This document shows, one piece after another, positions 3,302-24,053 of a stretch of 31,872 bases of DNA. A model generated the notes under the pieces. It had not been told where the DNA came from and did not search any database. It saw nothing but the letters and a program-made list of their open reading frames with translations. The stretch comes from a virus (lineage: Duplodnaviria; Heunggongvirae; Uroviricota; Caudoviricetes), in IMG/VR virus record IMGVR_UViG_3300045988_180666, one strand, 5' to 3'. The stretch's first letter is position 1. Each line of letters begins with the position of its first letter. Both the position numbers and the translations under genes were made by a program.

Positions 3302-3604
3302 TTAATCTTGCTCTATTAGTTTAACAATCTGACAATATACCCCTGGCACCAAGGAAGCCTTGGCGACCTCTTTGATCATGGTTAAGTCTTCGGTCGTACA
3401 CTCGACCTCACTTGGTTTAGTGTGCATCTGCACACTCAGGTTGTAGGCTCTCTTAAGAGACTCATCATCAGCCTTGACGCTGTTATTGCTTCCGTTGAAC
3501 AGATGAAGTCCGAGCACCTCATTCATCATCTGAGGCTGTCCGTTGCTGTCTGTCATCACCCCGCCCCTGTAGTTACGGATGGCGACCTTAAAATTTCTTT
3601 TCAT
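3302..3604 (-). CDS. hypothetical phage protein (tail module)
   Basis: 100 aa with ATG at 3604. Packed between the large tail gene and 3003..3299. Confidence 0.55.
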   Translation of the reverse strand: MKRNFKVAIRNYRGGVMTDSNGQPQMMNEVLGLHLFNGSNNSVKADDESLKRAYNLSVQMHTKPSEVECTTEDLTMIKEVAKASLVPGVYCQIVKLIEQD

Positions 3605-3622
3605 ATCTGTCTAAGTTTAAAA

Positions 3623-6600
3623 TTAATATGCGTGGTTCAGCTTGCGCGCTGTGTATTTGGTCGTGTAGTCACTCACCTTGTTGCCCATGGTTGAGTTATA
3701 GACCAGCAGGAACGTCGCACTGTCGCCCTGTCCCATCTCTATGTAATCTTTGTTGCCGCAGTTCTCATCGAGAATCAAAGGTAACTCCTCTTTGTTCCAT
3801 GCGTAGGAATCGCTTTTGTCTTTGATCTTGTTGCGCCCATAAATGAAGAAGTTTGTCGTGCCTGGCTCAGCGACCACCGTAAATGTCACGGCGAAGTTGG
3901 TAGATGAGCCACAGCCTAATGCGCTGCGCACCTCAGACAGTGTTGGCAGCGTTATGCCGCTTGACGAGACGTAGCTGTAGATGAGCCAGACGTTATTCTC
4001 AGAAATCTTGGCATAGCCATTATAGATGGTGTTTTTTGTGCTAAGCGCATATCTGCTATACTTATATCCACCTATCCATCCATTGAGTACGCCATTGCCA
4101 GCACCTGTGAAAGCAAAATTATAGGCACCGTTTTTAGCCGAGAGTATGGCTGCGATATTGTAACCAAGCCCCCACCAGTCGCTGCTGTCCTCATTTTCGA
4201 ATCGAGCCACCGCACGCTGTCCTGATGACGCTGGTAGTACGTTGCCACCGATGCCCGCAAAGCATTTATGGGTATCGTTGCGAAATATGATGTATGCATC
4301 ATTGGTAAATGGGTCGTTTGTCAGACCCGTGCCCTGGATAGTGAATCCAGCGATCTTGCCCGCCAATGCCTCCATGGAGCCATCTTTGTTGATTTTGAAA
4401 TTGCTGTTGGCCGTGACCACACCGTTAAGGTTGATTTGGTCTGCCGTGATGGTGGCAGAGGAGATGCCGTTGGCAATCATTGTCTTGATGGTAGCCTCGG
4501 ATAGAATCTTGCCATCGACACCCTCGATTTTTGTAGTCAGCGCATTGTAGTCTGCCGTCACAAGCAAGCCACCTTTGTTTTTGAGCGTGCCATCGGCATT
4601 GAATCGCTCGCTCATCAGGGCGTTGTAGTCAGCGGTGGTGATAAGATAGCTCGTATCTTTGAGCTTGCCATTGGCATCGAAACGAGCAACTGCCGAAGAC
4701 CACGAATCGGCGTTTTGACTGACTAACGATATAGTCGGACCATAATCGTTGCGTATGTCTGAGCCTACGCTGTCGGCGTGTCTCCTGGCTTCGGCAACGG
4801 AACTGTTGAGGGCATTGTAGTTGTCAGACATAGTCCCTTGCAAAGTGTTTTTGGCTGCATTCAGCTCGTCTTTTGTCGCAGCCTTGCCCACCGTGGTATT
4901 GATGCCATTGACCGTTATCTTTAACTCAGCGAGTGCCGCCTTGGTGCCGTTGGCAGTATTGGTGACGCTCTCGACACGTGCAGTGATGCTGTCGATGTCG
5001 GTGTAGATGCCAGAAATTTTCTCGTTTGTGCTATCCTGCCAGGTGTTGATGAGGTCGATGCGACCTGCCTCTATCTCTATTCTTGACGAGAGTGTTGTGT
5101 TGAGTTCGCCGTATCTCTTATCGACATATAGGCGTATTGCCTCTTTCTCAGCGTCCAGCTCGATGCCGAGCTGAGTTGTGGTACCATTGACCTTGTCGAT
5201 GTTTTGTCCCAGCAGCTTGATGTTTTTGGCCGTCTGAAGTATTTGTGTCGAGACGGTCTTGCTCAGGTTGTCGAGCGGCTCGTCGGTGATGGTGAGCAGC
5301 GCGACGTAGATGTCTCCTGTATATCGGAGCACGAAGTCGCCGGTGCCATTCCACTTGCCATTTAGCTCTACCGTCTGCCACTCTGCCGAGTATGGCACGC
5401 TGACGCTCTGGGCTGACAGGTCGTTGGTCTTGCCTTCGACAGCCTTGCAACCCTCGAAGCCAAAGGTGAGGGTGCCAGCAGTCTTGGCGTAGATGCGAGC
5501 ACTTATATATAAGGTGTCTTGCACCTCGGTGTAGTCATCGCCAGTGGTGTTCATGCCATCCTCGCCTTTTTCTGCCGATGGCTGGGTATATTCCTTGTGG
5601 GTACCGGGTTTGCGGATGAGATCATTGGCTTGTTTGATGCCGCTGTCCTGTATGTGCAGCATGTTGCGACCCTCGTTGTTGTCGATGCTCACTCGGTGGT
5701 TGCCACTCACGGTGGCGGCACCATTGACCATGACAGGTAAGCCATTGGCATCGACCCAGAACTGGGACTCGTCTGTATCGTCGATGGTCCAGCCATCAAT
5801 GAGCTGCTCATCGTTATAGCCTATCGCCGTCAGAAACTGACCGTTATGGAGGTAGTTGTTCTCCTCTGTCGCCTCGTAGGAGGTCTGTGCGAAGCGGGTG
5901 GCGAACTGGTTCTGCAGCATCTGTATTTTGGTGTCGATGCTCTCACCTGTGCGGCGGAGCACGAAGTCGCCCGTGGCGTAGAGGTTCTGCAGGAACTCAC
6001 CGAAGCCTGATAGTGCACCGAAGAGTGGATGGGTGATGCCCCGTAAGTTGCCGAGGCGACCTTTGAGCGCATTGTCTGGGTCTGTCTTGAGACCATAGAT
6101 GATGTCCATGTAGGGCGTATCGCTGCCCACAGTCATCATCTGTATGATGCCCTTGCGGTCGGGGTCGGTGAGGTTGTCGACCCTAACAAAAGTGTCTCGC
6201 TTGGTGATGAGCTGCTCTGCGGTGGCACCCTCCATCGATGAGGTGAAGTTCTTGAACTTGACCCATGCTAGCATATCCTCGCCACTGCCCTCGCTGCCCA
6301 CCTCTGTCACGATAAGCTCGTATCGCTTGGTGACATAGTGATTGTTTTCGGTGGAGGGCATGCCATTGTACTGCTGCACCATCACGTAGTCATCCTTGCG
6401 GAATGGGTTGTACATCCTGCCCTCGTGGGTGTCGAGATAGACCCTGCCTGTCTCTGGATCGTAGTGGTCAACCTCTAGCATCGCCGTGAAGATGCGGTTG
6501 TCATTCTCGCCCAAGAGTTGGGAGATAATCATCTCGAAGATGCGCATGGTACCACGCACGATGAGATTATCGAGCTCTAGACCATACCTATTCTCTTGCA

Positions 6601-8918: not shown

Positions 8919-9720
8919 AAGCTATATTGTGGCTAGCCTTGTAGGCGGTGGAATCTCTATATTTGGCGAAGTCATCGATGTTATCGTCTATGAGGGAGAG
9001 TAGGCTGAAGAAGAGTTTGTCTCTCGCCCTGAGGTCGATGGAATCGCCGTTTTTTGTGATATGGCACCCGATGAAATCGTAGATGCGCATGATGGCGACC
9101 CGATGGGAGGTGGTCGGGAACTGAGCCTTGCGCTCCTCTTCGAGCAACTGGTCTATCTGTGCATCGGAGAGCTCTCGGCGCAGGAAGGTCTCGGCTTGGT
9201 CTATCTCGCCCTTGTGCGCCACGAGGTCATCGAAGGTAAGCTTGCCGGGGATGCCGCAGAACTTGTTGAGGATGTATGGCGACCAAATGAAGGAGCGGAT
9301 GGTGTTGAAGGCTTGCAAGCTGTCAGCCCAGCCCTCGACCTGTCGCAATCGGTTGATGACGTTGTGCTGGGCGTAGTCTCGCCTGTAGGCAAGCTCGTGC
9401 TCCATGGCATCGACACGAGCCTGTGAGGCTGGGGCGATGTTGTCGTTGGAGACCACCCCGAAGCCGTTGTCGGTCATGATGATGTCGTGGGAGTGGAGAC
9501 TATCGAGGAAGGTGGCCAGTATGACATAGTCTCTGGCGTAGCGCTGCAGGGGCGAGTCTTCGGTCGAGACCGCTTGCTCGGCATCTGCGCCCACGACGGT
9601 GGCGATAAGATCGTCAAAATGGTTCTCGAAGGATGGCTGCATCTTGGTGAAGACATCCTCGGAGGCTGCCGCCACGAATGGCAGCAGCTGCTCGAACTGG
9701 TTTATATCAATCTGTATCAT
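8875..9720 (-). CDS. hypothetical phage protein (possible head-tail adaptor)
   Basis: The track ORF is 8875..9762. The internal ATG at 9720 (MIQIDINQFEQLLPF...) is preferred because it overlaps the upstream gene by 14 nt rather than 56 nt. The start remains uncertain. Confidence 0.5.
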   Translation of the reverse strand: MIQIDINQFEQLLPFVAAASEDVFTKMQPSFENHFDDLIATVVGADAEQAVSTEDSPLQRYARDYVILATFLDSLHSHDIIMTDNGFGVVSNDNIAPASQARVDAMEHELAYRRDYAQHNVINRLRQVEGWADSLQAFNTIRSFIWSPYILNKFCGIPGKLTFDDLVAHKGEIDQAETFLRRELSDAQIDQLLEEERKAQFPTTSHRVAIMRIYDFIGCHITKNGDSIDLRARDKLFFSLLSLIDDNIDDFAKYRDSTAYKASHNIAYENNADDTTFFFAG

Positions 9721-11113
9721 CTTGTTGCTTTGATTTTTGGTTGTTGGAAACTTGCTTGGCATCCTTGTTCTCGTCGAGGGTGGTGAGCATGATGAGCGGC
9801 ACGTCTGGATAGACCTTCTGCTCCCAGTGGTTGAAGTAGATGACCACCCAGTGAACGGTCTCCATGAGGTCGTGGAACGCCTTCTCTATCGACTGCTTGA
9901 GGGTGAAGAGCTCTCGCTTGTCTGAGCCAGAGTTGTTGGTTTGGCTCTTGCCCGGTGTGGCGCCCACGAGATTAGGGTGGATGTTGTCGGCATAACACTG
10001 CATGTTGTTGCTCTCGGCGATGTCGTCGCTGTAGTCACCGCCATCCTTTGAGGTGTCGATGCGCGTGATGCGCACCATCTTTACCTCTTTGCCATCAGGT
10101 GTGGTGTAATAGCCCGCTATCCAGAGCTTGCCGCTATTCTCGATGCCTGAGATGAAGGAGCGGATTTTTTCTTTCTCCTTCAGCTTGCGCTCCTTTTGCT
10201 TTGCCTTGTCGGTGATGTGCTCCTCTTGGAAGATGCCACGCCAATAGTCGTTGTGTATCTCTACGAGGTAAGGGATGGCAGCGTGGTTTTTGAGCTTTGC
10301 CATCTTGCCGATGGCGATGAGCCGGGAGATGTCGTACCACTTGTCTCGGAAGATGGCGCTGTAGTAGGGCACGGGGTAGTATTGACTGCCAGGAGTAGGG
10401 AAGCGAGTCACGATGGCGAAGACTCTGTCTTTGCACTTTGCTCCACCCGTCTGTCTGGTCAGGGTCTGTCCGCTTTGACCGTCGAGCCCCATGCGCTGCT
10501 GTAGGTCGCCCAGTGGGTCTAGCTCGTCGAGGAGTGGCAGCACCTCGATGTTGTCGGGTTTGACGGCATTGCGCCAGTTGGTATAGAGCACGTATTCGGA
10601 GCGACCGTTTTTGCTCTGGGTGAACCGACAGTAGCACGCCTCTTTGTGCCGGATGCCCACGATGCGATCGCCCTTTTTGTTGAGGATGATGGCTGAGACA
10701 CAAAAGAAGAAGTACTTCATGTCTGTGATTTGCTCGAGGAAGAAGCGCGAGAGGTTGTTGTGCATCTTGAAGAGGTTGACCTCTTTGTCTTGTGTCGGAA
10801 GCTTTGTCTTGATGTCGTTGTACTGGAAGCCCATGCCGTAGCAGGTGAGCACGTTGAAGAGCTTGTTTTGCGCCATCACGCTGCTCTCGCCGATGTTTTT
10901 GATGAGCTGGTAGGGCAGCTTGTTGTCTGCCCCGAAGGGGATGTAGGTGTATCTTTGCTTGTCCACCTCTACGGAGACGGTGGGTGTGGTACCATCATCA
11001 TCGAAGATGGATGAGGACTCGACGAAGCCGCTGGTGGGCGACGAGGTCTGGTAATCGAGCACCTCGCCCATGGTGGCGTATGTGATGTCTATGTTATTGC
11101 TTTTGTCTGCCAT
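9707..11113 (-). CDS. putative portal protein
   Basis: The track ORF extends to 11284, but its first 57 codons overlap 11119..11379 and look non-protein-like. The ATG at 11113 (MADKSNNIDITYATMGE...) gives 468 aa. Size, the polar/acidic C-terminal tail and the position ahead of adaptor/tail genes suggest a portal. No motif-level proof. Confidence 0.45.
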   Translation of the reverse strand: MADKSNNIDITYATMGEVLDYQTSSPTSGFVESSSIFDDDGTTPTVSVEVDKQRYTYIPFGADNKLPYQLIKNIGESSVMAQNKLFNVLTCYGMGFQYNDIKTKLPTQDKEVNLFKMHNNLSRFFLEQITDMKYFFFCVSAIILNKKGDRIVGIRHKEACYCRFTQSKNGRSEYVLYTNWRNAVKPDNIEVLPLLDELDPLGDLQQRMGLDGQSGQTLTRQTGGAKCKDRVFAIVTRFPTPGSQYYPVPYYSAIFRDKWYDISRLIAIGKMAKLKNHAAIPYLVEIHNDYWRGIFQEEHITDKAKQKERKLKEKEKIRSFISGIENSGKLWIAGYYTTPDGKEVKMVRITRIDTSKDGGDYSDDIAESNNMQCYADNIHPNLVGATPGKSQTNNSGSDKRELFTLKQSIEKAFHDLMETVHWVVIYFNHWEQKVYPDVPLIMLTTLDENKDAKQVSNNQKSKQQDDTD

Positions 11114-11118
11114 AATCT

Positions 11119-11379
11119 TTATAAGTATATTGAATGGTCGTTGTATCTGAAGATGAAAATGTCTCTCACCTTGCGTATCTGGTGGTTGACTGGGTTGTAG
11201 AGGGTGTGGGTGCCGTTTTGCCAGGATGAGGACTTGACGAGCCATCCCCTGTACTGGATGATGGAACCATCGCCGCCCTTCCAACAGTCGATGTCAACGG
11301 GCGAGCGGTCGATGCGCGAGATGTCGAGGGCACGGCGCAGCTCGTTGATGTGTATTGCCTTGGGTGTCTTGTCTGCCAT
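11119..11379 (-). CDS. hypothetical small phage protein
   Basis: 86 aa with ATG at 11379. 5-nt gap to the putative portal start. Confidence 0.5.
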   Translation of the reverse strand: MADKTPKAIHINELRRALDISRIDRSPVDIDCWKGGDGSIIQYRGWLVKSSSWQNGTHTLYNPVNHQIRKVRDIFIFRYNDHSIYL

Positions 11380-15340: not shown

Positions 15341-16024
15341 TTATAGCTTTCCTTTGTCGTGGTAGCTGTAGAAGCCATCCTCAGCCAAGATGATATGGTC
15401 CATCAAGAAAAGTCTCATCACCTCGCACGCCTTGGCTATCTTCTGCGTGAGCATATCGTCCGCCTTGCTCGGCTGCGTGCTGTTCGATGGGTGGTTGTGT
15501 GCCACGGCGATGATGGTTGCATTGTTGAGCACGGCTTCTTTCATTATCAGTCGAACGTCCACCGCTGTCTCGGTGATGCCTCCCTCGCTGAGCTTGGTGC
15601 ACTTTATCAGCCTAAAGTTTTGGTTCATCAGCACTACCCAAAAGCCCTCTGTCTCATTGCAGCCTATCATTGGGCGAAGATAGTTGTAGAGTGCCAGGCT
15701 GCTGCCTAGGTCGGTGTTTCTCGCTACCTTTTCCATTTGGTAGCGTCTGCCTAGCTCGATGGCTGCCTGTAGGGCTATCGCCTTGCAGTCTCCAATTCCT
15801 GGTACCACTTCCAGGTCTTCTATTCTCGCCTTGCCGATGTTGCGAAGCGAGTTGCCCATGATGTTATAAATCTGTCGTGCCTGCTCTTGGCTGTCCTTGG
15901 TACCTGCCCCTCTGTTGATTACCAAAGAAATCAAGTCAACGTTGGTAAGGGTGTCGAAACCTTGGTTATAGGCTCTGTACTGCGGTCTCTCCTCCATACA
16001 AAGATTGTTATAATTTTGTCTCAT
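15341..16024 (-). CDS. radC: RadC-family JAB/MPN domain protein
   Basis: 227 aa. The N-terminal part is HhH-like (LEVVPGIGDCKAIALQAAIELGRR). The C-terminal JAMM motif is intact: E in ETEGFWVVLMN, then AHNHPSNSTQPSKADDMLT (HxHx7SxxD). Confidence 0.85.
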   Translation of the reverse strand: MRQNYNNLCMEERPQYRAYNQGFDTLTNVDLISLVINRGAGTKDSQEQARQIYNIMGNSLRNIGKARIEDLEVVPGIGDCKAIALQAAIELGRRYQMEKVARNTDLGSSLALYNYLRPMIGCNETEGFWVVLMNQNFRLIKCTKLSEGGITETAVDVRLIMKEAVLNNATIIAVAHNHPSNSTQPSKADDMLTQKIAKACEVMRLFLMDHIILAEDGFYSYHDKGKL

Positions 16025-16039
16025 ATCTTTTGTTATTTG

Positions 16040-16564
16040 TTAGTTATACATTCTCTTTGTTCTCGCTAGGAACATCGCTCCCATCACTTGTGCGCCACAT
16101 TCGGCTAGCTCGTTGGCGAACTCTCGGGCGGTCGCTCCGCTCGTCACCACGTCGTCGAAGATGATGACTTTCTTTCCGCTGAAGTACTCTCTATCGAGTG
16201 CCACTCTGTAGTCGAAGCTCTCACACACTCTGTCTGTGCTGAAGTGCTTGGCTGTGCGCTCTCCATAGATGGAAATGTGCTCGTTTCCGTTCTGTACCTT
16301 TGCGCCTTGGCTCACCTTTTGGGCGAAGCGAGAAAAGCGCTTGGTGTACTTCTTTGAGTTGGCTGCTGGAGCGCAAACCATCACGAAGTCGCTGGCTTTG
16401 TCGCCATAGGTGTTGACGAAAGAGCTGACCACCATATCGGCAGCTGCGTCTGTCGCCCACTGCTTTCCATCCTTGAAGGCAAAGATGAAGTTTCTCACTT
16501 GCTCTGCTTGTGCTGAGCGGTCGAAACGCTTGGAGCTGTACTCGTAATAATTGAAAGTTTTCAT
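16040..16564 (-). CDS. ComF-like phosphoribosyltransferase (PRTase) domain protein
   Basis: 174 aa. Canonical PRPP-binding loop KKVIIFDDVVTSGATAREFANELAECGA. The upstream segment VCAPAANSKKYTKRFSRFAQKVS resembles the ComF-type R.F.Q region. No N-terminal Cys4 zinc finger is present. Only 15 nt separate it from radC. Confidence 0.8.
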   Translation of the reverse strand: MKTFNYYEYSSKRFDRSAQAEQVRNFIFAFKDGKQWATDAAADMVVSSFVNTYGDKASDFVMVCAPAANSKKYTKRFSRFAQKVSQGAKVQNGNEHISIYGERTAKHFSTDRVCESFDYRVALDREYFSGKKVIIFDDVVTSGATAREFANELAECGAQVMGAMFLARTKRMYN

Positions 16565-17462: not shown

Positions 17463-19064
17463 CTATAGCATGGAACCCGTGGCGATGTAGCCATCAGCCT
17501 GAGGGTATTTCTCCATGCCAATCATGAGCGTGTCGTAGGCATCGGAGCCATCGGTGCGAGCCTCCAACTTATCCTCCTCGGTCTCAGCCAGCTTCTCGCC
17601 TCGCTTATCCTTCTTGCCGTTGTAGACCCCGGCCAGGCGGATGGAGATGAGCAGGTCTTCGTTGTTCTCGCTGTTGATCATCGAGCGATGCTCAGCCTTG
17701 CCGAGGAACATGCGGTTGAGCAGAAGCATCTTTTCGAGATGTCCCATCGGGTTGCCCAGATAGACCTCGTTGACATACCAGCCATGGTCGGTGAGGTAGT
17801 CGGTGATGAAGGTATGGAAGTCATCGTTCATCAGGGCGTAGTTGTTGCCCACGAAGGTGGAGTCGTAGTAGAAGTTGACCTCTTTGCACCGATGGTACTC
17901 ATAGTACTGCATGAACTTGTCGAGCAGGGCTGGCAGCTTCTCCTCATACTTCACGAAGATGCTCTTGAGGCAGCGTGCCTCGCCCCGCAGGTTGTCTTGT
18001 CCGACGGCTATCCAGTTGATGAGGGCGTTGGCATCGAAGGCGATGCAGAGCGGACGGTCGGGGTCAACGTCGGCATCCATTCTGGAATCTACATGCTTGA
18101 GCTTGTCGATGTCGTAGCCCAAGCCATCGAGGTAGGCGAGGTTGGGCGCCGTGTATAGGTTGGCATCCCTGAGGTTGGAGTAGAAGCCATCGAGCGAGAT
18201 GGAAGGTCGCTTGCACATGATGGAGGTCTGGAAGGTGAGGGCAGGGAGGTCTCGCTTCATCTGCTTGATGAACTCCATGCCGAGCACCTCGATGTTATAG
18301 ACCGATGAGTACTCTTTATAGAAGAGTGCCTTGGAGCGCAGTTGCGCCAGGAGCTGACCAATCTCTCGGAGTCGGCGCTGGGCATAGCCTGAGACATGGC
18401 CCGAGGTCTTGATGCGGTTGCGTATGTCATACTCCTCTACCACGAGCGAGGCGATGGCGTCGATGAGCAGCTGGTCGCAGTCTTTCTTGTAGTTGAGGAA
18501 CCAGGAGCCCTTCTTGGTCACGGGCATATCAGAGGTGATGAGCATGCCATGGTGGTAGTAGTGCTGGCCGAAGAGGTTGACGTTGCCTCGATTGGCAGGG
18601 AAGGTCTCGTCTTTGAGCTGTTCGAAGTTGATGAACTTCGCCTCGTCGATGTCGAGGTAGTCGAGCGAGAGGGAGTTGGAGGTACCCTTGCGGTCTTGCG
18701 AGATGATGGTACCGATGGAGCCGTTATAGAAAGAGATGGTGTTCTCCCAGTTGCTGGGCGGTATGACCGGGTCGGGCCATCCCAGTTTTTTGGGAGGCTT
18801 GACCCCGATGAGATAATGCTTGCCCCGGTGGAAGCCCCATCGCTCCCAGTGCTGAAGCATCGACGGTATGGTGTTGGTGAGGCATCGCTTGGTGTTGGCG
18901 GATACGAAGCCGCCGTTGCTGCCAGGCATGCGCTGCATGTTGCGCAGGTTGAAGGTGGCGTGGAGAATGCTCTTGCCGATGCCTCGACCGCCCACGACCA
19001 CGTTGTCGCGGGCGGAGATGAGGTTGACCTCCATCTGGGCTGGGTTGAGATATTGATCTATCAT
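17463..19064 (-). CDS. terL: terminase large subunit
   Basis: 533 aa. Walker A is VVGGRGIGKS and Walker B-like is LSLDYLDIDEA, followed by a C-terminal nuclease-sized domain. The start overlaps the upstream gene in an ATGA arrangement. Confidence 0.85.
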   Translation of the reverse strand: MIDQYLNPAQMEVNLISARDNVVVGGRGIGKSILHATFNLRNMQRMPGSNGGFVSANTKRCLTNTIPSMLQHWERWGFHRGKHYLIGVKPPKKLGWPDPVIPPSNWENTISFYNGSIGTIISQDRKGTSNSLSLDYLDIDEAKFINFEQLKDETFPANRGNVNLFGQHYYHHGMLITSDMPVTKKGSWFLNYKKDCDQLLIDAIASLVVEEYDIRNRIKTSGHVSGYAQRRLREIGQLLAQLRSKALFYKEYSSVYNIEVLGMEFIKQMKRDLPALTFQTSIMCKRPSISLDGFYSNLRDANLYTAPNLAYLDGLGYDIDKLKHVDSRMDADVDPDRPLCIAFDANALINWIAVGQDNLRGEARCLKSIFVKYEEKLPALLDKFMQYYEYHRCKEVNFYYDSTFVGNNYALMNDDFHTFITDYLTDHGWYVNEVYLGNPMGHLEKMLLLNRMFLGKAEHRSMINSENNEDLLISIRLAGVYNGKKDKRGEKLAETEEDKLEARTDGSDAYDTLMIGMEKYPQADGYIATGSML

Positions 19065-19690
19065 AGTGCTTTGTCCTCCTTGACTTCTTCTGTAGGTGTA
19101 TATTCCAAGAGCTGTTCGTCGTAGTCCTCGGCCTCGATCTTGACGAGATCCATGGAGTTGTCGGTGTATTTCTTGACGAGCTTCTTGATGGTCTGCATCA
19201 CGTTAGGGATGCGCTTGAGACCCAAGTGTCGTGGGTCGGTGGTAGGGATGAAGACCTGAGGCTGAATCTGGTCGTAGCCGTTGTCGGTAGGATCCTCTTT
19301 GTCGAGCAGGTGATATTTGCCGTATGCAGCTGCGGCGGCAGCCATGGCTCGGGCATCGCCCATGGAGTCGGCCTTGTCGTAGGTGCGCTGTATCATCTGG
19401 TCGAAGCGATAGCGGGCGAAGTCTTTTGACACTTTTTGCAGGTTGCCCAATATGAGCTTGATGAGGTGCAGGTCGTTGTAAGCCATCATGCGCTGCACCT
19501 TGTAGTCGTGCATATCTTTATAGACCAGCTCTTGGTCGCTCTTGCGAGGGTTGATGAGCCACCAGGCATAGAGGGCACGGATGCGCAAAATGCGGTCGCG
19601 CACTGGGGCGGGCACATTTTGCGCATCCATCTCTTCGGGTGTGCGGTCCATCAGTTCGATGATGGCATCGATGTTGGCGGGTTCTCTCAT
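19061..19690 (-). CDS. possible terminase small subunit / packaging protein
   Basis: 209 aa, helical, translationally coupled (4-nt overlap) to terL on one side and to the HTH ORF on the other. The call rests on position only. Confidence 0.4.
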   Translation of the reverse strand: MREPANIDAIIELMDRTPEEMDAQNVPAPVRDRILRIRALYAWWLINPRKSDQELVYKDMHDYKVQRMMAYNDLHLIKLILGNLQKVSKDFARYRFDQMIQRTYDKADSMGDARAMAAAAAAYGKYHLLDKEDPTDNGYDQIQPQVFIPTTDPRHLGLKRIPNVMQTIKKLVKKYTDNSMDLVKIEAEDYDEQLLEYTPTEEVKEDKAL

Positions 19691-19968
19691 ATTCTAATCT
19701 CCTCTAACATTTGGTTCAGATATTCGTGTGTGCGCTGCACCGCCTGTGGCGAGCCAGCCGCAGCCAGGTCTAGCTTGTTTTTGCGTATCTGCTGGCGCAC
19801 CGTCGCCATGCCCAAGTAATAGACACGGTGAAGCTCGGAGTCGGGCTTCAGTATCTCGTCACGCAGATCGTCCTCGCTAATATCCAAAAGGACGGACATC
19901 TCGGATATCGGAGTCAACGTCTCCGCGAAGTCTTGCACTTTTTTGAGTAATTCCTGAGAAATTTCCAT
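19687..19968 (-). CDS. small HTH-like DNA-binding protein (TerS N-terminal-domain-like)
   Basis: 93 aa. The segment ISEMSVLLDISEDDLRDEILKPDSELHRVYYLGMATVRQQ resembles the HTH/recognition layout of small-terminase N-termini. ATG at 19968 lies 92 nt inside the upstream ORF. Confidence 0.4.
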   Translation of the reverse strand: MEISQELLKKVQDFAETLTPISEMSVLLDISEDDLRDEILKPDSELHRVYYLGMATVRQQIRKNKLDLAAAGSPQAVQRTHEYLNQMLEEIRI

Positions 19969-20452
19969 TGATTCTTAAGCTTTGAGTGTCACAATGAAGG
20001 GTATATCCGCCGAAGAGGTCGGCGAAGACCTGCGGGTCGGTGGTGATGATGGTTGACTCGTCACGGCTGCCGTAGGTCTGGTTTTGCGAGGTGACGACCG
20101 ACACGACGTGCTGGTCGTTGCGGAAGAGTGTCACCTTGGAGTGGTTTTGCCCCAGGAACACATCGTTGAAGCAGGTCTGCATCATGCGCCACAGCTGCAC
20201 GGTCTTTTTGCTCGCCTTGACATCGAGCAGCATCGTTGCCGACAGGATGCTGCCCGACTGGCGCATCAGGCGGAAGCCTCGCAGGAACTCCTCGGAGGTG
20301 GAGTAGGAAGACACCCACACATCTGCAGGGCCTATCTGGGAGAGAATCCACTTGATGAGACCGAGGGTGTGGAGGTGCCGCCCGAAGTAGGCTTGCGTCT
20401 GGGCATCGGCGATAGGACGGAGCAGGTCACTGACCTTGACCTTGGTCGGCAT
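19877..20452 (-). CDS. PLD/HKD-superfamily (Nuc-like) protein
   Basis: 191 aa. The single HKD-type motif GQNHSKVTLFRNDQHVVSVVTSQNQT fits the Nuc-like pattern (H.K...D......GS.N.T). The preceding VWVSSYSTSEEFLRGFRLMRQSG...LLDVK matches the first half of the fold. Confidence 0.55.
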   Translation of the reverse strand: MPTKVKVSDLLRPIADAQTQAYFGRHLHTLGLIKWILSQIGPADVWVSSYSTSEEFLRGFRLMRQSGSILSATMLLDVKASKKTVQLWRMMQTCFNDVFLGQNHSKVTLFRNDQHVVSVVTSQNQTYGSRDESTIITTDPQVFADLFGGYTLHCDTQSLRINGNFSGITQKSARLRGDVDSDIRDVRPFGY

Positions 20453-21170
20453 TGGCGGCTAGCTTAGCCTTGGCTACACGGTCACGGTCGGCATTGGTAA
20501 CCTGGTATGAGTCGTAGGTGAGCATGTCGGCACGATAGCGCTTGTCGAGGTCGGAGAGTATCTTGAGAAGCTCGTATCGGTCGCATGGCTCAAGGCGCTC
20601 CATCGTCTTGAGCGTCTCGAAGGTCGATTTAATCTGCTTGTATCGCTTGGCGTTGGCATCCCAGAGAGCGGCAACCTCGGCAGGAAGGAACTCATGGTCG
20701 CTGCGCTTGCCCTTGCGGATGACCGCCACGCCATCGCTCTCGGAGGAAGGCAGCTCGGCATCATCGGTCGAGCCATCATCGTCGATGGAATCGGCATTTT
20801 TTGCGATTTCATTGCCATTTTCGTCGGTTTCATCGGTCTTTTTGGTCGTTTTCTCGGTCGTATCGGTCGTTTCTTCGGTCGTTGCCACAGGTACGCCCTC
20901 ACTGATGATGGCTTGCGCCTCTGGTATGACGATGGCATCCATCTGCTTGACCTCTTCGATGGTCATGCCATCGAGACGAATCTTCAGGAACTTATTCAGC
21001 TCATACTCGATGTTGGTGCGATAAACCTGTGGCTGTCGGGTGGCACGGAAATGGTAGAAGCGATTGCGGTTGAGACGGAAGAGCATGTCTGCGCCCTTGA
21101 TGATGTCAGCGTCGCTCTCGTGCTTGGCATTGAGCCACGCCTGTATCTGTTTGGTGAATTGATGATCCAT
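20427..21170 (-). CDS. hypothetical phage protein with acidic T/D/E-rich linker
   Basis: The track ORF starts at 21302 and overlaps the upstream gene and a terminator. The ATG at 21170 (MDHQFTKQIQAWLNAK...) gives 247 aa, starting just downstream of the terminator at 21190-21230. Confidence 0.55.
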   Translation of the reverse strand: MDHQFTKQIQAWLNAKHESDADIIKGADMLFRLNRNRFYHFRATRQPQVYRTNIEYELNKFLKIRLDGMTIEEVKQMDAIVIPEAQAIISEGVPVATTEETTDTTEKTTKKTDETDENGNEIAKNADSIDDDGSTDDAELPSSESDGVAVIRKGKRSDHEFLPAEVAALWDANAKRYKQIKSTFETLKTMERLEPCDRYELLKILSDLDKRYRADMLTYDSYQVTNADRDRVAKAKLAANADQGQGQ

Positions 21171-21189
21171 ATATAAGAATGTTTTTGAT

Positions 21190-21230
21190 GAAAAGAACAA
21201 AGGTGGCTCAGGCACGAAGCGAGAGCCACC
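21190..21230 (-). terminator. intrinsic terminator after the capsid/198-aa gene pair
   Basis: Minus-strand GGUGGCUC-13 nt loop-GAGCCACC followed by UUUGUUCUUUUC. Confidence 0.65.
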
Positions 21231-21286
21231 TAAGCTTTGAAGTTTAAACCGTATGTAGTTATGCAAAAATTTGGGCAAATGAACGT

Positions 21287-21883
21287 TTATGCCGCCTCCC
21301 ATACAGAGCCATCGGAACCCTTGATGTCTCCGGACTCAGTCTCGATCTTGCCAGGATAGAACGGTGTAGGGCAGAAGTCTGTCGCCTCGGTGTTGACGGT
21401 CGTGGTGCAAGCATCGGTCACGCCGCTGCCTGATGCCTGGCTGACGGTAATCTTAGGTGCGAATGCCTCGCAGCCGATGAGACGGGCACGACCCTTGCGG
21501 TCTTGCACCATCATGATGAGCTCGTCGTTGATAGCCATGGTAGCGAAGCCACTGATGTCCTCGTCGGTACCACCCACCACGAACTCGCCTTTGTTGAGGA
21601 ACGTAGCGGAAGGTGCCTCGCCCTGAGTCTCTGCAGTAAAATTGCTCTTGGCATCTACGAGGTCGAGACTGTGCCACTTGGCATCGCTCGCCAAGGTGAA
21701 GTCGCCTGTATATTGAGCCAGCTTAGCTGGGTCTGTGGTCTCGTCAGTTGCCGCTGGCAATGTTGGCCAAGTCAGAATCTGACTCTTCAAGATGAAGAAA
21801 ACACGAGGGCGAACGCCTGGGGCTATGCGAGCCCCAGGACATTTCTTAACTGATTTATATAAATCTTTTGTATTACAAGCCAT
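21287..21883 (-). CDS. phage structural protein (head decoration or similar abundant virion protein)
   Basis: 198 aa, immediately after the putative capsid gene and followed by a strong terminator, the layout expected of a highly expressed head gene pair. No motif recognised. Confidence 0.5.
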   Translation of the reverse strand: MACNTKDLYKSVKKCPGARIAPGVRPRVFFILKSQILTWPTLPAATDETTDPAKLAQYTGDFTLASDAKWHSLDLVDAKSNFTAETQGEAPSATFLNKGEFVVGGTDEDISGFATMAINDELIMMVQDRKGRARLIGCEAFAPKITVSQASGSGVTDACTTTVNTEATDFCPTPFYPGKIETESGDIKGSDGSVWEAA

Positions 21884-21916: not shown

Positions 21917-23026
21917 TTACTCCTTGCCCTCAGCTCCGGTATCGTCTGCAGAAGAATTCTTCTGCTCTGCATCGCTAGCTGTGTTGCTGCTTGCAGGATC
22001 AGCACCTGAACCCTTTGTGATGAGCGATGTGGTACCATCGTTTGTGATGAACAGGGCTCGTTCTTTATTGATGCTCTCGTACTGGCAACCTAAGAACTTG
22101 GTGGCGATGAAGTCGAGCTTCCAAGGGTGGTACTTTTCTACGCTGATCTTCTCCTCGTCGCTGTTGTTTGCCTCGTTGACACCCACGAGCATATTGTTGC
22201 GAGTGGTGAGCTGGAAGAACGGAGCGTTCTTCTTGTTGATGAGTGGTACCATCTCAACGTTGTCGAAACCCTCGACGGTGTTGTGGTTGTAACCGGTATT
22301 GTATGGCACATTGCCAAACTTATTGAGGTAGTTGCGGTTGTAGAGATTGATGAACGCCTGTGGAACGTAGAGATAAAGCTTCTCTTCGCCAATCAGTTCT
22401 TCGTCAGCCTCCTCGCAAATGGCCTGTGCGAAGTCAACGGCGTTATCGCTGCTGATATTCTTACCACTGCCCAAAATATCTGAAACTTTGATGAGGTTGC
22501 CGAGGTCTCGAGACAGCTTGCCATTAGTCAACTCAGTCTTGGCGATGGTATCGAAACCATTGAAGAGGTCTTTTGAGCCTTTGCCCTCGTCGTTGCGCAC
22601 GGCATCGAAGAGGTGGAGGTTGAGGTTCTTGCCCAGCTTGAGCGCCAAGAGCTGCAGCACCTGAAGGGTGATTGGCACGTTCTTAAGCGCTTCGCCATTC
22701 ATGGCGTTGGCCCCCCAAATGGTGGAATAAACTGAGTTCGGGGAGAACTTGATGTCAACGTTGCCGAGGAACACCTGCAAAGTGCGAGGTGTAATCTTTA
22801 CGCCACCATCGCCCACGCGGTTCTCGTCGTATGGACCAAACTCTGCGTTGCCGAGCAACTCGCCCACGGTCTCTGAAACTCTGATGCCCGGGCGCAGGGT
22901 CATGTACTTGAGTGACTGAGCCAAGCCTTTGGTAGGCATCGTAATCAACTTCGAACGGTAAGTTTTCGCAGTGTTCTGCAGCTGTACATCGACATCTACA
23001 GGCACAATGAATTTATTATCTGCCAT
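21917..23026 (-). CDS. putative major capsid protein
   Basis: The ATG at 23026 (MADNKFIVPVDVDV...) lies 1 nt after the protease/scaffold stop and gives 369 aa. Position and size are typical of a capsid protein. It has a long polar C-terminal tail. Confidence 0.65.
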   Translation of the reverse strand: MADNKFIVPVDVDVQLQNTAKTYRSKLITMPTKGLAQSLKYMTLRPGIRVSETVGELLGNAEFGPYDENRVGDGGVKITPRTLQVFLGNVDIKFSPNSVYSTIWGANAMNGEALKNVPITLQVLQLLALKLGKNLNLHLFDAVRNDEGKGSKDLFNGFDTIAKTELTNGKLSRDLGNLIKVSDILGSGKNISSDNAVDFAQAICEEADEELIGEEKLYLYVPQAFINLYNRNYLNKFGNVPYNTGYNHNTVEGFDNVEMVPLINKKNAPFFQLTTRNNMLVGVNEANNSDEEKISVEKYHPWKLDFIATKFLGCQYESINKERALFITNDGTTSLITKGSGADPASSNTASDAEQKNSSADDTGAEGKE

Positions 23027-23027
23027 A

Positions 23028-24053
23028 TTATGCAAACTGATTTAAAACATCCAACACTTGATCTGAGCAGAAATCCTCGACCTTGGTGTCATCGACAGCA
23101 GTGTGCGTGTCGCCACCAGGCTCTCCCTCCAGATCCTTCACTTTATCCTTCAGGTCATCTCTCTCCTTTTCGAGATTCTTGACCTTAGTCTCTAACTCCT
23201 TCTTCTCGTCCTTGACCTTCTGAAGCTCTGTGTCTTTGTCGGTCACGGCCTTGGAGTCGGCAGCGATCTTATCCTCCAGTTTCTGCATCTGCTCCTGTGA
23301 GATTGTGCAGTTCTTTGCGGAATCTTCTGCCTCAATGCCCTCGATATTGAGGACATTGTTGATGTGAGTCCATTTTTTGATCATATTAATAATTTTATTT
23401 TGTGATTTATCTTTGCCGAATAATCGGTCGATGATGCTTGGCTTTTTATCATACCAGGAGTTAACAACCTCTGGGAGAACAGGAAGGTTGTTGTACTTGA
23501 TGAAGTCTTGCGTCTGCTCGGTGATGTCGGCAGGCTTGCCATCCATGGCTTCATCGACGAGACCCAGTTCGATGCACTCATCGACGGTGTGCCACATCGC
23601 TTCGGACATCACCTTGACGATGTCCTCGTGCTTCTTGCCCGAGCGATCGCAGTAAACGTTGGCGATGATGTTGTCGATTTTCTGCTGGTTCTCTTGCTGT
23701 TTTTGAAGTTGCTCGATGAGCGAGCCTATCTGCTCCTCGTTGAGCGCAGACCACACAAACTGCTCGGTAGAGCACTTGTGTACCAGGAGCAAGCTATATT
23801 TGCTCATGCGAATCTTGCTGGCACCCATCGCACAGATGGTGGCAGCAGAGGCAGAGAAGCCCGCCTGGAAGTCAACGGTCACGTCGCCATGGGACTTGAA
23901 CATCTGACAGATGGCGAGACCTGCGGAGACCTCGCCACCCAAGGAGTCGATGGCAACATCGACGTGCTTATCTTTGTTGGCCTTAAGAACATCGCGAACC
24001 ATGAGCTTGGTCCACGAGCCAATATATCCTGTGATAGAAATTTGGTACTTCAT
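23028..24053 (-). CDS. ClpP-like prohead serine protease fused to coiled-coil scaffold domain
   Basis: 341 aa. The N-terminal half has ClpP/S14-like motifs (DSLGGEVSAGLAI; Ser region QAGFSASAATICAMGA; His region LLLVHKCS). The C-terminal part is a K/E/D coiled coil (KVKDEKKELETKVKNLEKERDDLKDKVKDLEGE). Confidence 0.8.
   Translation of the reverse strand: MKYQISITGYIGSWTKLMVRDVLKANKDKHVDVAIDSLGGEVSAGLAICQMFKSHGDVTVDFQAGFSASAATICAMGASKIRMSKYSLLLVHKCSTEQFVWSALNEEQIGSLIEQLQKQQENQQKIDNIIANVYCDRSGKKHEDIVKVMSEAMWHTVDECIELGLVDEAMDGKPADITEQTQDFIKYNNLPVLPEVVNSWYDKKPSIIDRLFGKDKSQNKIINMIKKWTHINNVLNIEGIEAEDSAKNCTISQEQMQKLEDKIAADSKAVTDKDTELQKVKDEKKELETKVKNLEKERDDLKDKVKDLEGEPGGDTHTAVDDTKVEDFCSDQVLDVLNQFA

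Follow-up and report, generated by a model that had tools for sequence, protein, structure and literature searches.

A PLD-family (HKD) nuclease-like gene conserved beside the terminase genes of a gut Prevotella-type phage: a possible accessory to DNA packaging

The IMG/VR virus record IMGVR_UViG_3300045988_180666, a 31,872-nucleotide stretch from a virus of the class Caudoviricetes (hereafter the window, meaning this whole stretch), encodes on its minus strand a 191-aa protein of the phospholipase D (PLD) superfamily (19877..20452; called here the PLD protein). Structure modelling confirmed this protein as a single-HKD member of the superfamily with a Nuc-like fold. The location of its gene, directly upstream of helix-turn-helix (HTH)/TerS-like genes and of the large terminase gene terL, had been noted in an original prediction made from the sequence and is borne out by the gene order on the same strand. 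The recurrence of this position in several unrelated phage groups suggests, but does not prove, DNA cutting or processing for packaging. On these grounds we propose, tentatively and at slightly under even confidence, that the PLD protein would assist DNA packaging or end processing as an accessory enzyme acting on phage DNA.

The open reading frame (ORF) starts with ATG and stops with TAG. It is co-directional with its neighbours, overlaps both of them, and lies like all the substantial ORFs of the window on the minus strand. A word-indexed search over 5.8 billion proteins retrieved 258 homologues, whose E-values reach down to 1e-120, nearly all of 191-194 aa and matched over their full length; none of the 258 carried a precomputed Pfam domain. 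With a profile, an exhaustive search of 1.84 billion representatives (of clusters defined at 50% identity) gave 824 clusters at E<=1e-3, mostly of 150-200 aa, and 297 at E<=1e-10. Given these hundreds of full-length homologues, the ORF is a real gene and not a chance reading frame.

Assignment to the PLD superfamily was reached through intermediates and fold, because the window protein itself matched Pfam PLDc_2 only below the curated gathering threshold (E 0.048, residues 96-144; 13.9 versus 27 bits), while 38 of 78 relatives matched this family at E<=0.01 (best 1.8e-7). The PHROG family phrog_16945, annotated "endonuclease", matched residues 30-143 of the window protein at E 3.1e-5 and 57 of the 78 relatives, with a best E-value of 5e-23. 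As searches of the PDB with the protein, both by sequence and by profile, yielded noise only, a fold comparison was needed. The AlphaFold2 (AF2) model, computed from 25 homologues, showed a single domain with a mean predicted local distance difference test score (pLDDT) of 81.7, confident over the folded residues ~1-163 and disordered over residues 164-191. Foldseek comparison of this model with the PDB placed only PLD-superfamily folds at the top (E ~3e-6, probability 1.00): NucT (6ehi), Nuc (1byr), Zucchini (4gel), BfiI (2c1l), NgoAVII (4rct), BJ-TSA-9/FAM83 and the C-terminal domains of PPK1, with TM scores normalised to the small targets of about 0.6-0.65. The modelled protein thus displays the alpha/beta sandwich of the superfamily, and the Nuc-like fold that had been predicted is upheld by the matches to Nuc and NucT.

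The catalytic segment, identified from the alignment and the PLDc_2 match (20057..20146, minus strand), reads N103-H104-S105-K106 ... S122-Q-N124-Q-T126 ... R130-x-E132, so that the HKD motif occurs, as predicted, in a single copy, at residues 103-126. Across a 78-member alignment extending down to ~20% identity with the window protein, exactly four columns were invariant, namely H104, K106, N124 and E132; the conservation of the catalytic histidine and lysine that had been put forward as a check therefore stands. Residues D77, S122 and R130 were conserved in at least 90% of the members. Every full-length representative showed the motif H-x-K ... (S/T/G)S(Q/A)N-x-T ... R-x-E, and the TSQNQT-type sequence of the window protein passes gradually into the canonical GSAN among distant members; H104-S-K106 ... 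S122-Q-N124 follows the HxK...(G/S)SxN pattern of the superfamily. The invariant acidic residue E132 lies 28 positions after H104, and we take its counterpart in Nuc to be E122, an equivalence based on spacing. Together, the fold and the conserved motif residues make the protein a single-HKD superfamily member with an intact catalytic set, and to judge from these residues it is in all likelihood an active HKD nuclease, as predicted.

Nuc works as a homodimer whose two chains share a single composite active site. The window protein resembles Nuc (from pKM101/Salmonella) and NucT (from Helicobacter pylori) in having one HKD motif per chain, a similar size, the same H/K/N/E catalytic set and a fold match at E ~3e-6 (target TM 0.63-0.66), but shares only 12-15% sequence identity with them. 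The context also differs, Nuc and NucT being plasmid-borne or chromosomal and the window protein belonging to a phage packaging operon. Nuc is secreted, whereas neither a signal peptide nor a membrane segment was found in the sequence of the PLD protein. A 434-aa relative, P0262, is a tandem duplication carrying two HKD motifs, which is the pattern expected if the single-domain proteins dimerise around one composite site.

By sequence comparison, the PLD protein is a divergent Bacteroidota branch of the large catalogued phage family phrog_16945, named "NucT-like nuclease" in SEA-PHAGES. The original prediction had held an HKD nuclease in this slot to be unusual; with a family of this size, the arrangement is not rare. 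The top match in the viral structure library BFVD was the "NucT-like nuclease" of Arthrobacter phage Galaxy (E 3e-10), and the second a "polyphosphate kinase C-terminal domain 1" of an uncultured siphovirus. Galaxy gp53 scored 75 bits over the whole domain against the hidden Markov model (HMM) of the PLD family built here, and is thus of the same sequence family as the window protein, as is gp1 of Gordonia phage BetterKatz. Members of the NucT-like family have a single HKD motif and about 160-240 aa. The window protein differs in its TSQNQT motif, where the canonical form is GSxN, and in the 92-nt overlap of its gene with the next one.

Among 50,697 phage records, tblastn with the PLD protein found two weak (~30% identity), unannotated matches only, and a DNA search with the 6.7-kb region found no match. 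Close relatives were present in prophages of Segatella copri (82% identity), Prevotella, Hallella, Bacteroides and Phocaeicola and on 514 IMG/VR viral contigs, many of ~40-48 kb; the window phage is of a gut Prevotella type. Several relatives bear other names. ORF44 of Microcystis phage Mea-Yong924-1 is annotated "polyphosphate kinase" (PMC8875630; the Microcystis phage homologue lies at 4588-5163 of locus L169), and members from Prevotella and Alloprevotella metagenome-assembled genomes are labelled "C4-dicarboxylate ABC transporter". Both labels are misannotations, since the protein is a single PLD domain of 191 aa. The labels "NucT-like nuclease" and "endonuclease" are annotations of a predicted function.

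The adjacency to the terminase genes was followed in 168 loci. Six of these came from assemblies and 2 represent distant members; of the remaining IMG/VR loci, 80 belong to the close group and 80 to a second one with ~32% PLD identity. The block protease, major capsid protein, 198-aa protein, gene X, PLD, HTH, 209-aa protein and TerL had the same order in every one of the 168 loci long enough to show it; TerL was present in 167, the 209-aa gene in 167 and the HTH gene in 166. The order was also kept at 22-28% PLD identity, in a Rufibacter immobilis prophage, Microcystis phage Mea-Yong924-1 and the Flavobacterium phages 6H and laban6-1, and all five distant representatives with downstream context (5/5) had terminase-block genes after the PLD gene. 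The co-occurrence with terL across phages that the original prediction had called for was thus largely positive (168/168 related loci, together with independent lineages).

The same adjacency recurred in phage groups with a TerL that is unrelated by HMM. The PLD gene is gene 1 in Gordonia phage BetterKatz (139-792) and 15 relatives, and three small ORFs, terS and terL follow it; in BetterKatz it lies 139 bp from the left cohesive end, which is a 10-nt 3' overhang (PMC4982276). Corynebacterium phage phi16 encodes the PLD protein in ORF1 (204-1076), a putative TerS in ORF2 and TerL in ORF3, and its genome has 14-nt 3' cohesive ends (PMC5506516). The tandem double-HKD relative P0262 (locus L181, 3021-4325) lies two genes upstream of a TerL of Pfam family Terminase_6 and a portal gene. 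Across these groups the PLD gene occupies the place beside terS and terL that marks a terminase-associated accessory nuclease. The contig ends of the IMG/VR loci did not cluster near the PLD gene and are for that reason uninformative on genome termini. As a separate observation, the portal near P0262 is fused to 5'-3' exonuclease domains.

In the window, the PLD gene at its 3' end and the HTH gene at its 5' end share 92 nt in the +1 frame (19877..19968, minus strand), an arrangement found in 64 of the 168 loci. The same bases encode the PLD tail ...DVRPFGY and the HTH sequence ISEMSVLLD. In the close group, the PLD tail ends in D-(V/W)-R-P-F-G after a variable disordered linker; its bases read CCT TTT GGA in one frame and CTT TTG GAT in the other, where they belong to the first HTH helix and form its conserved S-x-L-L-D. 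Lineages without the overlap also have the conserved N-terminus of the HTH protein, but their PLD protein ends at ~170 aa and lacks the tail. From these sequences, the C-terminal tail of the PLD protein is most simply explained as a by-product of overprinting. A role of the D-x-RPFG tail as a docking motif was considered and is probably to be rejected, as the tail shares its bases with the LLD codons, is disordered, is absent where there is no overlap and has been lost in P0020, a viable fusion. This rejection is not proven, because the two frames of the overlap are about equally conserved (mean pairwise identity 0.41 versus 0.46). A programmed PLD-HTH frameshift, which would need a +1 shift, was also considered; no evidence for it was found in the overlap and we do not claim it.

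Six relatives carry the PLD domain and the full 93-aa HTH protein in a single ORF: P0020, P0007 and P0017 in the close group, and P0144, P0171 and P0226 among distant members, the linkers differing among the latter three. The P0020 fusion (locus L174, 5001-5765) was found on 22 contigs from several samples and is followed by the 209-aa gene and terL, the module being otherwise intact; the P0171 fusion lies at 650-1525 of locus L177. In 12 loci, the two genes share a frame and stand 7 nt apart. Such fusions arise easily, because one indel within the overlap joins the two frames, and their persistence means that tethering of the two proteins is tolerated. This pattern suggests that the PLD and HTH proteins act together. 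The HTH protein also occurs outside PLD-bearing phages, a homologue being gp15 of BT-TP2, a phage without the PLD gene. On the short contig L088 (1472-2089), the ORF after the PLD gene matched the gene-X HMM and not the HTH HMM; the gene order may be rearranged here, or the X HMM contaminated by mis-assigned sequences.

In the mechanism that we propose, the PLD protein would be a product of the late head-and-packaging operon, expressed alongside the HTH protein and the terminase. It would be a metal-independent PLD/HKD phosphodiesterase, most likely a DNA nuclease, forming a homodimer with one composite active site and cleaving, by the chemistry of its family, through a phosphohistidine intermediate. 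H104 would serve as nucleophile or general acid, with K106, N124 and E132 in support, as in Nuc and BfiI. At a site recognised by the HTH/TerS-like protein, the enzyme would help to make or process genome ends or concatemers.

Such a role would be analogous to that of the HNH accessory endonucleases, which Kala et al. in 2014 reportedly described next to the terminase genes of HK97-like cos phages; a requirement for accessory nucleases in cos cleavage has been shown for the HNH enzymes. Both systems place a small nuclease gene directly upstream of terS and terL, the PLD genes of BetterKatz and phi16 lie beside a 3'-overhang cos end as in the HNH case, and the TerL nuclease domain is kept in both. 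The enzymes themselves differ: no HNH domain was matched by Pfam in the PLD protein, and in place of the beta-beta-alpha-metal fold of HNH nucleases it has a PLD fold, for which a covalent phosphohistidine and no metal would be expected. The restriction enzymes BfiI and NgoAVII offer another comparison, having a similar PLD nuclease domain, and the HTH fusions P0020, P0144, P0171 and P0226 echo their nuclease-plus-reader architecture. Their DNA-binding part, however, is a B3-like barrel, while the part fused in the PLD relatives is a small HTH-like protein; in the window, PLD and HTH are separate overlapping genes, and there is no partner methyltransferase or restriction-modification context.

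In our literature search, no paper was found that links a PLD/HKD protein to terminase or characterises a "NucT-like" phage nuclease. The placement of the family upstream of terS and terL and near cohesive ends in unrelated phage groups appears unreported, as do the natural PLD-HTH fusions. A wider proposal, which we put forward as a rather doubtful extension, is that HKD/PLD proteins constitute a second class of accessory nucleases dedicated to the terminase, one not recognised so far. Recruited by, and sometimes fused to, an HTH/TerS protein, these metal-independent, phosphohistidine-forming enzymes would nick or process cos or pac DNA across phages of Bacteroidota, Cyanobacteria and Actinobacteria, a large set in all, in parallel to or alongside the HNH enzymes.

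Several observations weigh against an obligatory part in packaging. In TerL, the C-terminal residues D344 (CIAFDAN) and D401 (FYYDxT) are invariant and a TDGSDAxD motif is present, with a spacing typical of the RNase-H-like terminase nuclease, in phages with and without the PLD gene. On this sequence evidence, TerL would have no catalytic gap for the PLD protein to fill, and the idea that it replaces a lost TerL nuclease was rejected. Moreover, BT-TP2 and Porphyromonas phage028a carry an N6/N4 DNA methyltransferase (PF01555, E 1e-27 to 1e-30) in the PLD slot (gp14 of BT-TP2 at 3327-4001 of locus L172; the Porphyromonas gene at 3668-5014 of locus L170) and keep the flanking X, HTH, ~210-aa and TerL genes, and in Cellulophaga phage Ingeline_1 and Polaribacter phage Leef_1 the ORFs lying upstream of TerL include no detectable PLD homologue. 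This type of terminase therefore works without the PLD protein. The Porphyromonas methyltransferase has an N-terminal part of 227 aa without a recognised domain.

Nearby junctions of the terminase block also accept cargo: in locus L112 (9254-11488), the insert between the HTH and 209-aa genes encodes a 744-aa protein that has glycine-rich repeats and a lipoprotein signal, and inserts of ~1-1.3 kb separate the 209-aa gene from terL in loci L163 (9450-10788) and L103 (9697-10709). Arthrobacter phages, in 37 records, carry the family member in their early region, after the single-stranded DNA-binding protein gene and ~4 kb from terL across the genome ends, the end-proximal position being taken by an HNH gene. 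BetterKatz has both enzymes flanking cos, an HNH gene near the right end and the PLD gene at the left end, so that the PLD protein is not simply a substitute for HNH; the substitution suggested in the original prediction is not established. Finally, an HD-domain nucleotidase/phosphohydrolase gene directly precedes P0262 and hints at nucleotide salvage. Given the intact TerL motifs, the sister phages without the PLD gene and the early-region copies of Arthrobacter phages, the need for the PLD protein in packaging that the original prediction implied is likewise not established.

The same observations favour another explanation, namely that the PLD protein is a cargo nuclease in a permissive late-operon slot, acting on host or competitor nucleic acid, in nucleotide salvage or in anti-defence, with no part in packaging. 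A methyltransferase is typical anti-restriction cargo, and it fills this very slot with X and HTH kept; the presence of the PLD gene varies within one family, the Duneviridae; morons insert at the neighbouring junctions; the Arthrobacter copies belong to an early DNA-metabolism region and one relative adjoins the HD nucleotidase. The closest small PLD structures are moreover Nuc and NucT, which are non-specific nucleases. However, it would be unusual for cargo to keep its position upstream of terS and terL at 22-28% identity in phages of Bacteroidota, Cyanobacteria and Actinobacteria, the HTH fusions recur, and a non-specific nuclease made late would need a way of sparing the phage genome, for which none is evident. 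As for defence, PADLOC gave only a spurious Cas5a match with the window protein and a few weak DrmC or MkoB matches with its relatives (best 2.6e-5); as these matches are weak and generic and the neighbours are head and terminase genes, membership in a known defence system, one of the possibilities raised in the original prediction, was rejected. We consider the cargo explanation, of which action on host or competitor DNA and anti-defence had also been raised in the original prediction, to be the main rival, though somewhat unlikely.

An enzyme of PLD fold acting on a substrate other than DNA (polyphosphate or nucleotides, phospholipid, or a cyclic or oligonucleotide immune signal) would agree with the Foldseek matches to PPK1 C-terminal domains and phosphatidylserine synthase, with the polyphosphate kinase label of the Microcystis homologue and with PLD chemistry, which is a generic phosphodiester transfer. 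Yet PPK1 is a four-domain protein of ~690 aa (N, H, C1 and C2), of which the 191-aa protein aligns with one PLD-like C-domain only (target TM 0.18), whereas the best size-matched structures are nucleases (NucT, Nuc, Zucchini, BfiI). The relatives match NgoFVII and Tdp1 models and not lipid enzymes, the HTH fusion points to DNA, and the sequence has neither a membrane segment nor a signal peptide; we hold this explanation to be improbable. That the gene is non-functional, or encodes a catalytically dead structural or regulatory protein of PLD fold, could be argued from the sub-threshold PLDc_2 score, but four catalytic residues invariant in 78 diverse sequences, the hundreds of full-length homologues and the confident AF2 model bring it close to refutation. 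The accessory role in packaging or end processing is thus the proposal that we retain, as a tentative one.

The genes around the PLD gene, all on the minus strand, follow the order 994-aa primase/helicase-like gene, two small genes, protease, capsid, 198-aa gene, X, PLD, HTH, 209-aa gene and TerL. A ClpP-type prohead protease/scaffold (23028-24053) was assigned from Pfam CLP_protease (4e-14) and phrog_94 (1.5e-29). The putative major capsid protein (21917-23035) rests on a weak BLASTP match (E 2e-4) to an annotated Microcystis phage capsid and on synteny, and the conserved 198-aa head-associated protein (21287-21883) on synteny. Gene X (20427-21302) overlaps the start of the PLD gene by 26 nt at its end. 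Its homologues begin at a residue aligned with M45 (~21170), which from the alignment is probably its true start, the ORF as called being over-extended at the 5' end. The middle of the X protein is acidic and of low complexity. The protein also bears a conserved GKRxDHDxLP motif and is homologous to BT-TP2 gp13 (hhalign 95%, E 2e-8), which is followed by the methyltransferase and not by a PLD gene; no similarity was seen between X and the N-terminal half of the methyltransferase of the Porphyromonas phage. A role of X as a PLD-specific partner was rejected, X being also present where the methyltransferase replaces the PLD gene.

Downstream, the 93-aa HTH-like protein (19687..19968) is, from synteny and weak profile matches, a candidate for the DNA-recognition part of the small terminase. 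Its homologue in the Microcystis phage is annotated "terminase small subunit", one of 14 HTH relatives matched the TerS family phrog_309 (E 2e-4), and comparison with the "HTH" protein gp15 of BT-TP2 by hhalign gave 82% probability (E 1e-5). The 93-aa profile found no match in the PDB or Pfam, and no homology was detectable with the TerS of phi16 or with the 134-aa gene beside the tandem PLD gene. The 209-aa protein (19061..19690), with an acidic C-terminus, was placed by synteny and its AF2 model, which is all-helical (pLDDT 70.8, predicted TM score 0.40); two database searches found 39 relatives only, and Foldseek, Pfam and PHROG gave no match. It may be the part of TerS that oligomerises or binds TerL. 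The 533-aa TerL (17463..19064) matched phrog_2 (E 1e-4), and its profile matched the ATPase domain of P74-26 TerL (4znj); it is divergent and had no match in Pfam, and tblastn found annotated large terminases of the Microcystis phage, BT-TP2 and a Porphyromonas phage at 25-34% identity. A promoter and terminator scan, ill-suited to Bacteroidota, found nothing above chance.

Just downstream of terL, a RadC-like gene and a phosphoribosyltransferase-like gene (15341-16024 and 16040-16564, minus strand) separate it from the remaining structural genes. The RadC-like gene matched phrog_10276, "DNA repair protein" (E 2e-28), and Pfam RadC was matched in the homologous locus L174. The portal is probably the 525-aa ORF at 9707-11284, which had no family match.

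Even if the packaging link is wrong, these results correct misannotations that have been propagated and define a conserved block, X-[PLD or methyltransferase]-HTH-209aa-TerL, that aids annotation. The relatives with defined cohesive ends, BetterKatz and phi16, are cultivable and tractable, and make the question directly testable. If the link is true, a chemically different nuclease, working without metal and through a covalent intermediate, would join the packaging machinery. This would parallel the HNH story and would extend to the very abundant and little-known prophages of Prevotella and Bacteroides in the human gut and rumen.

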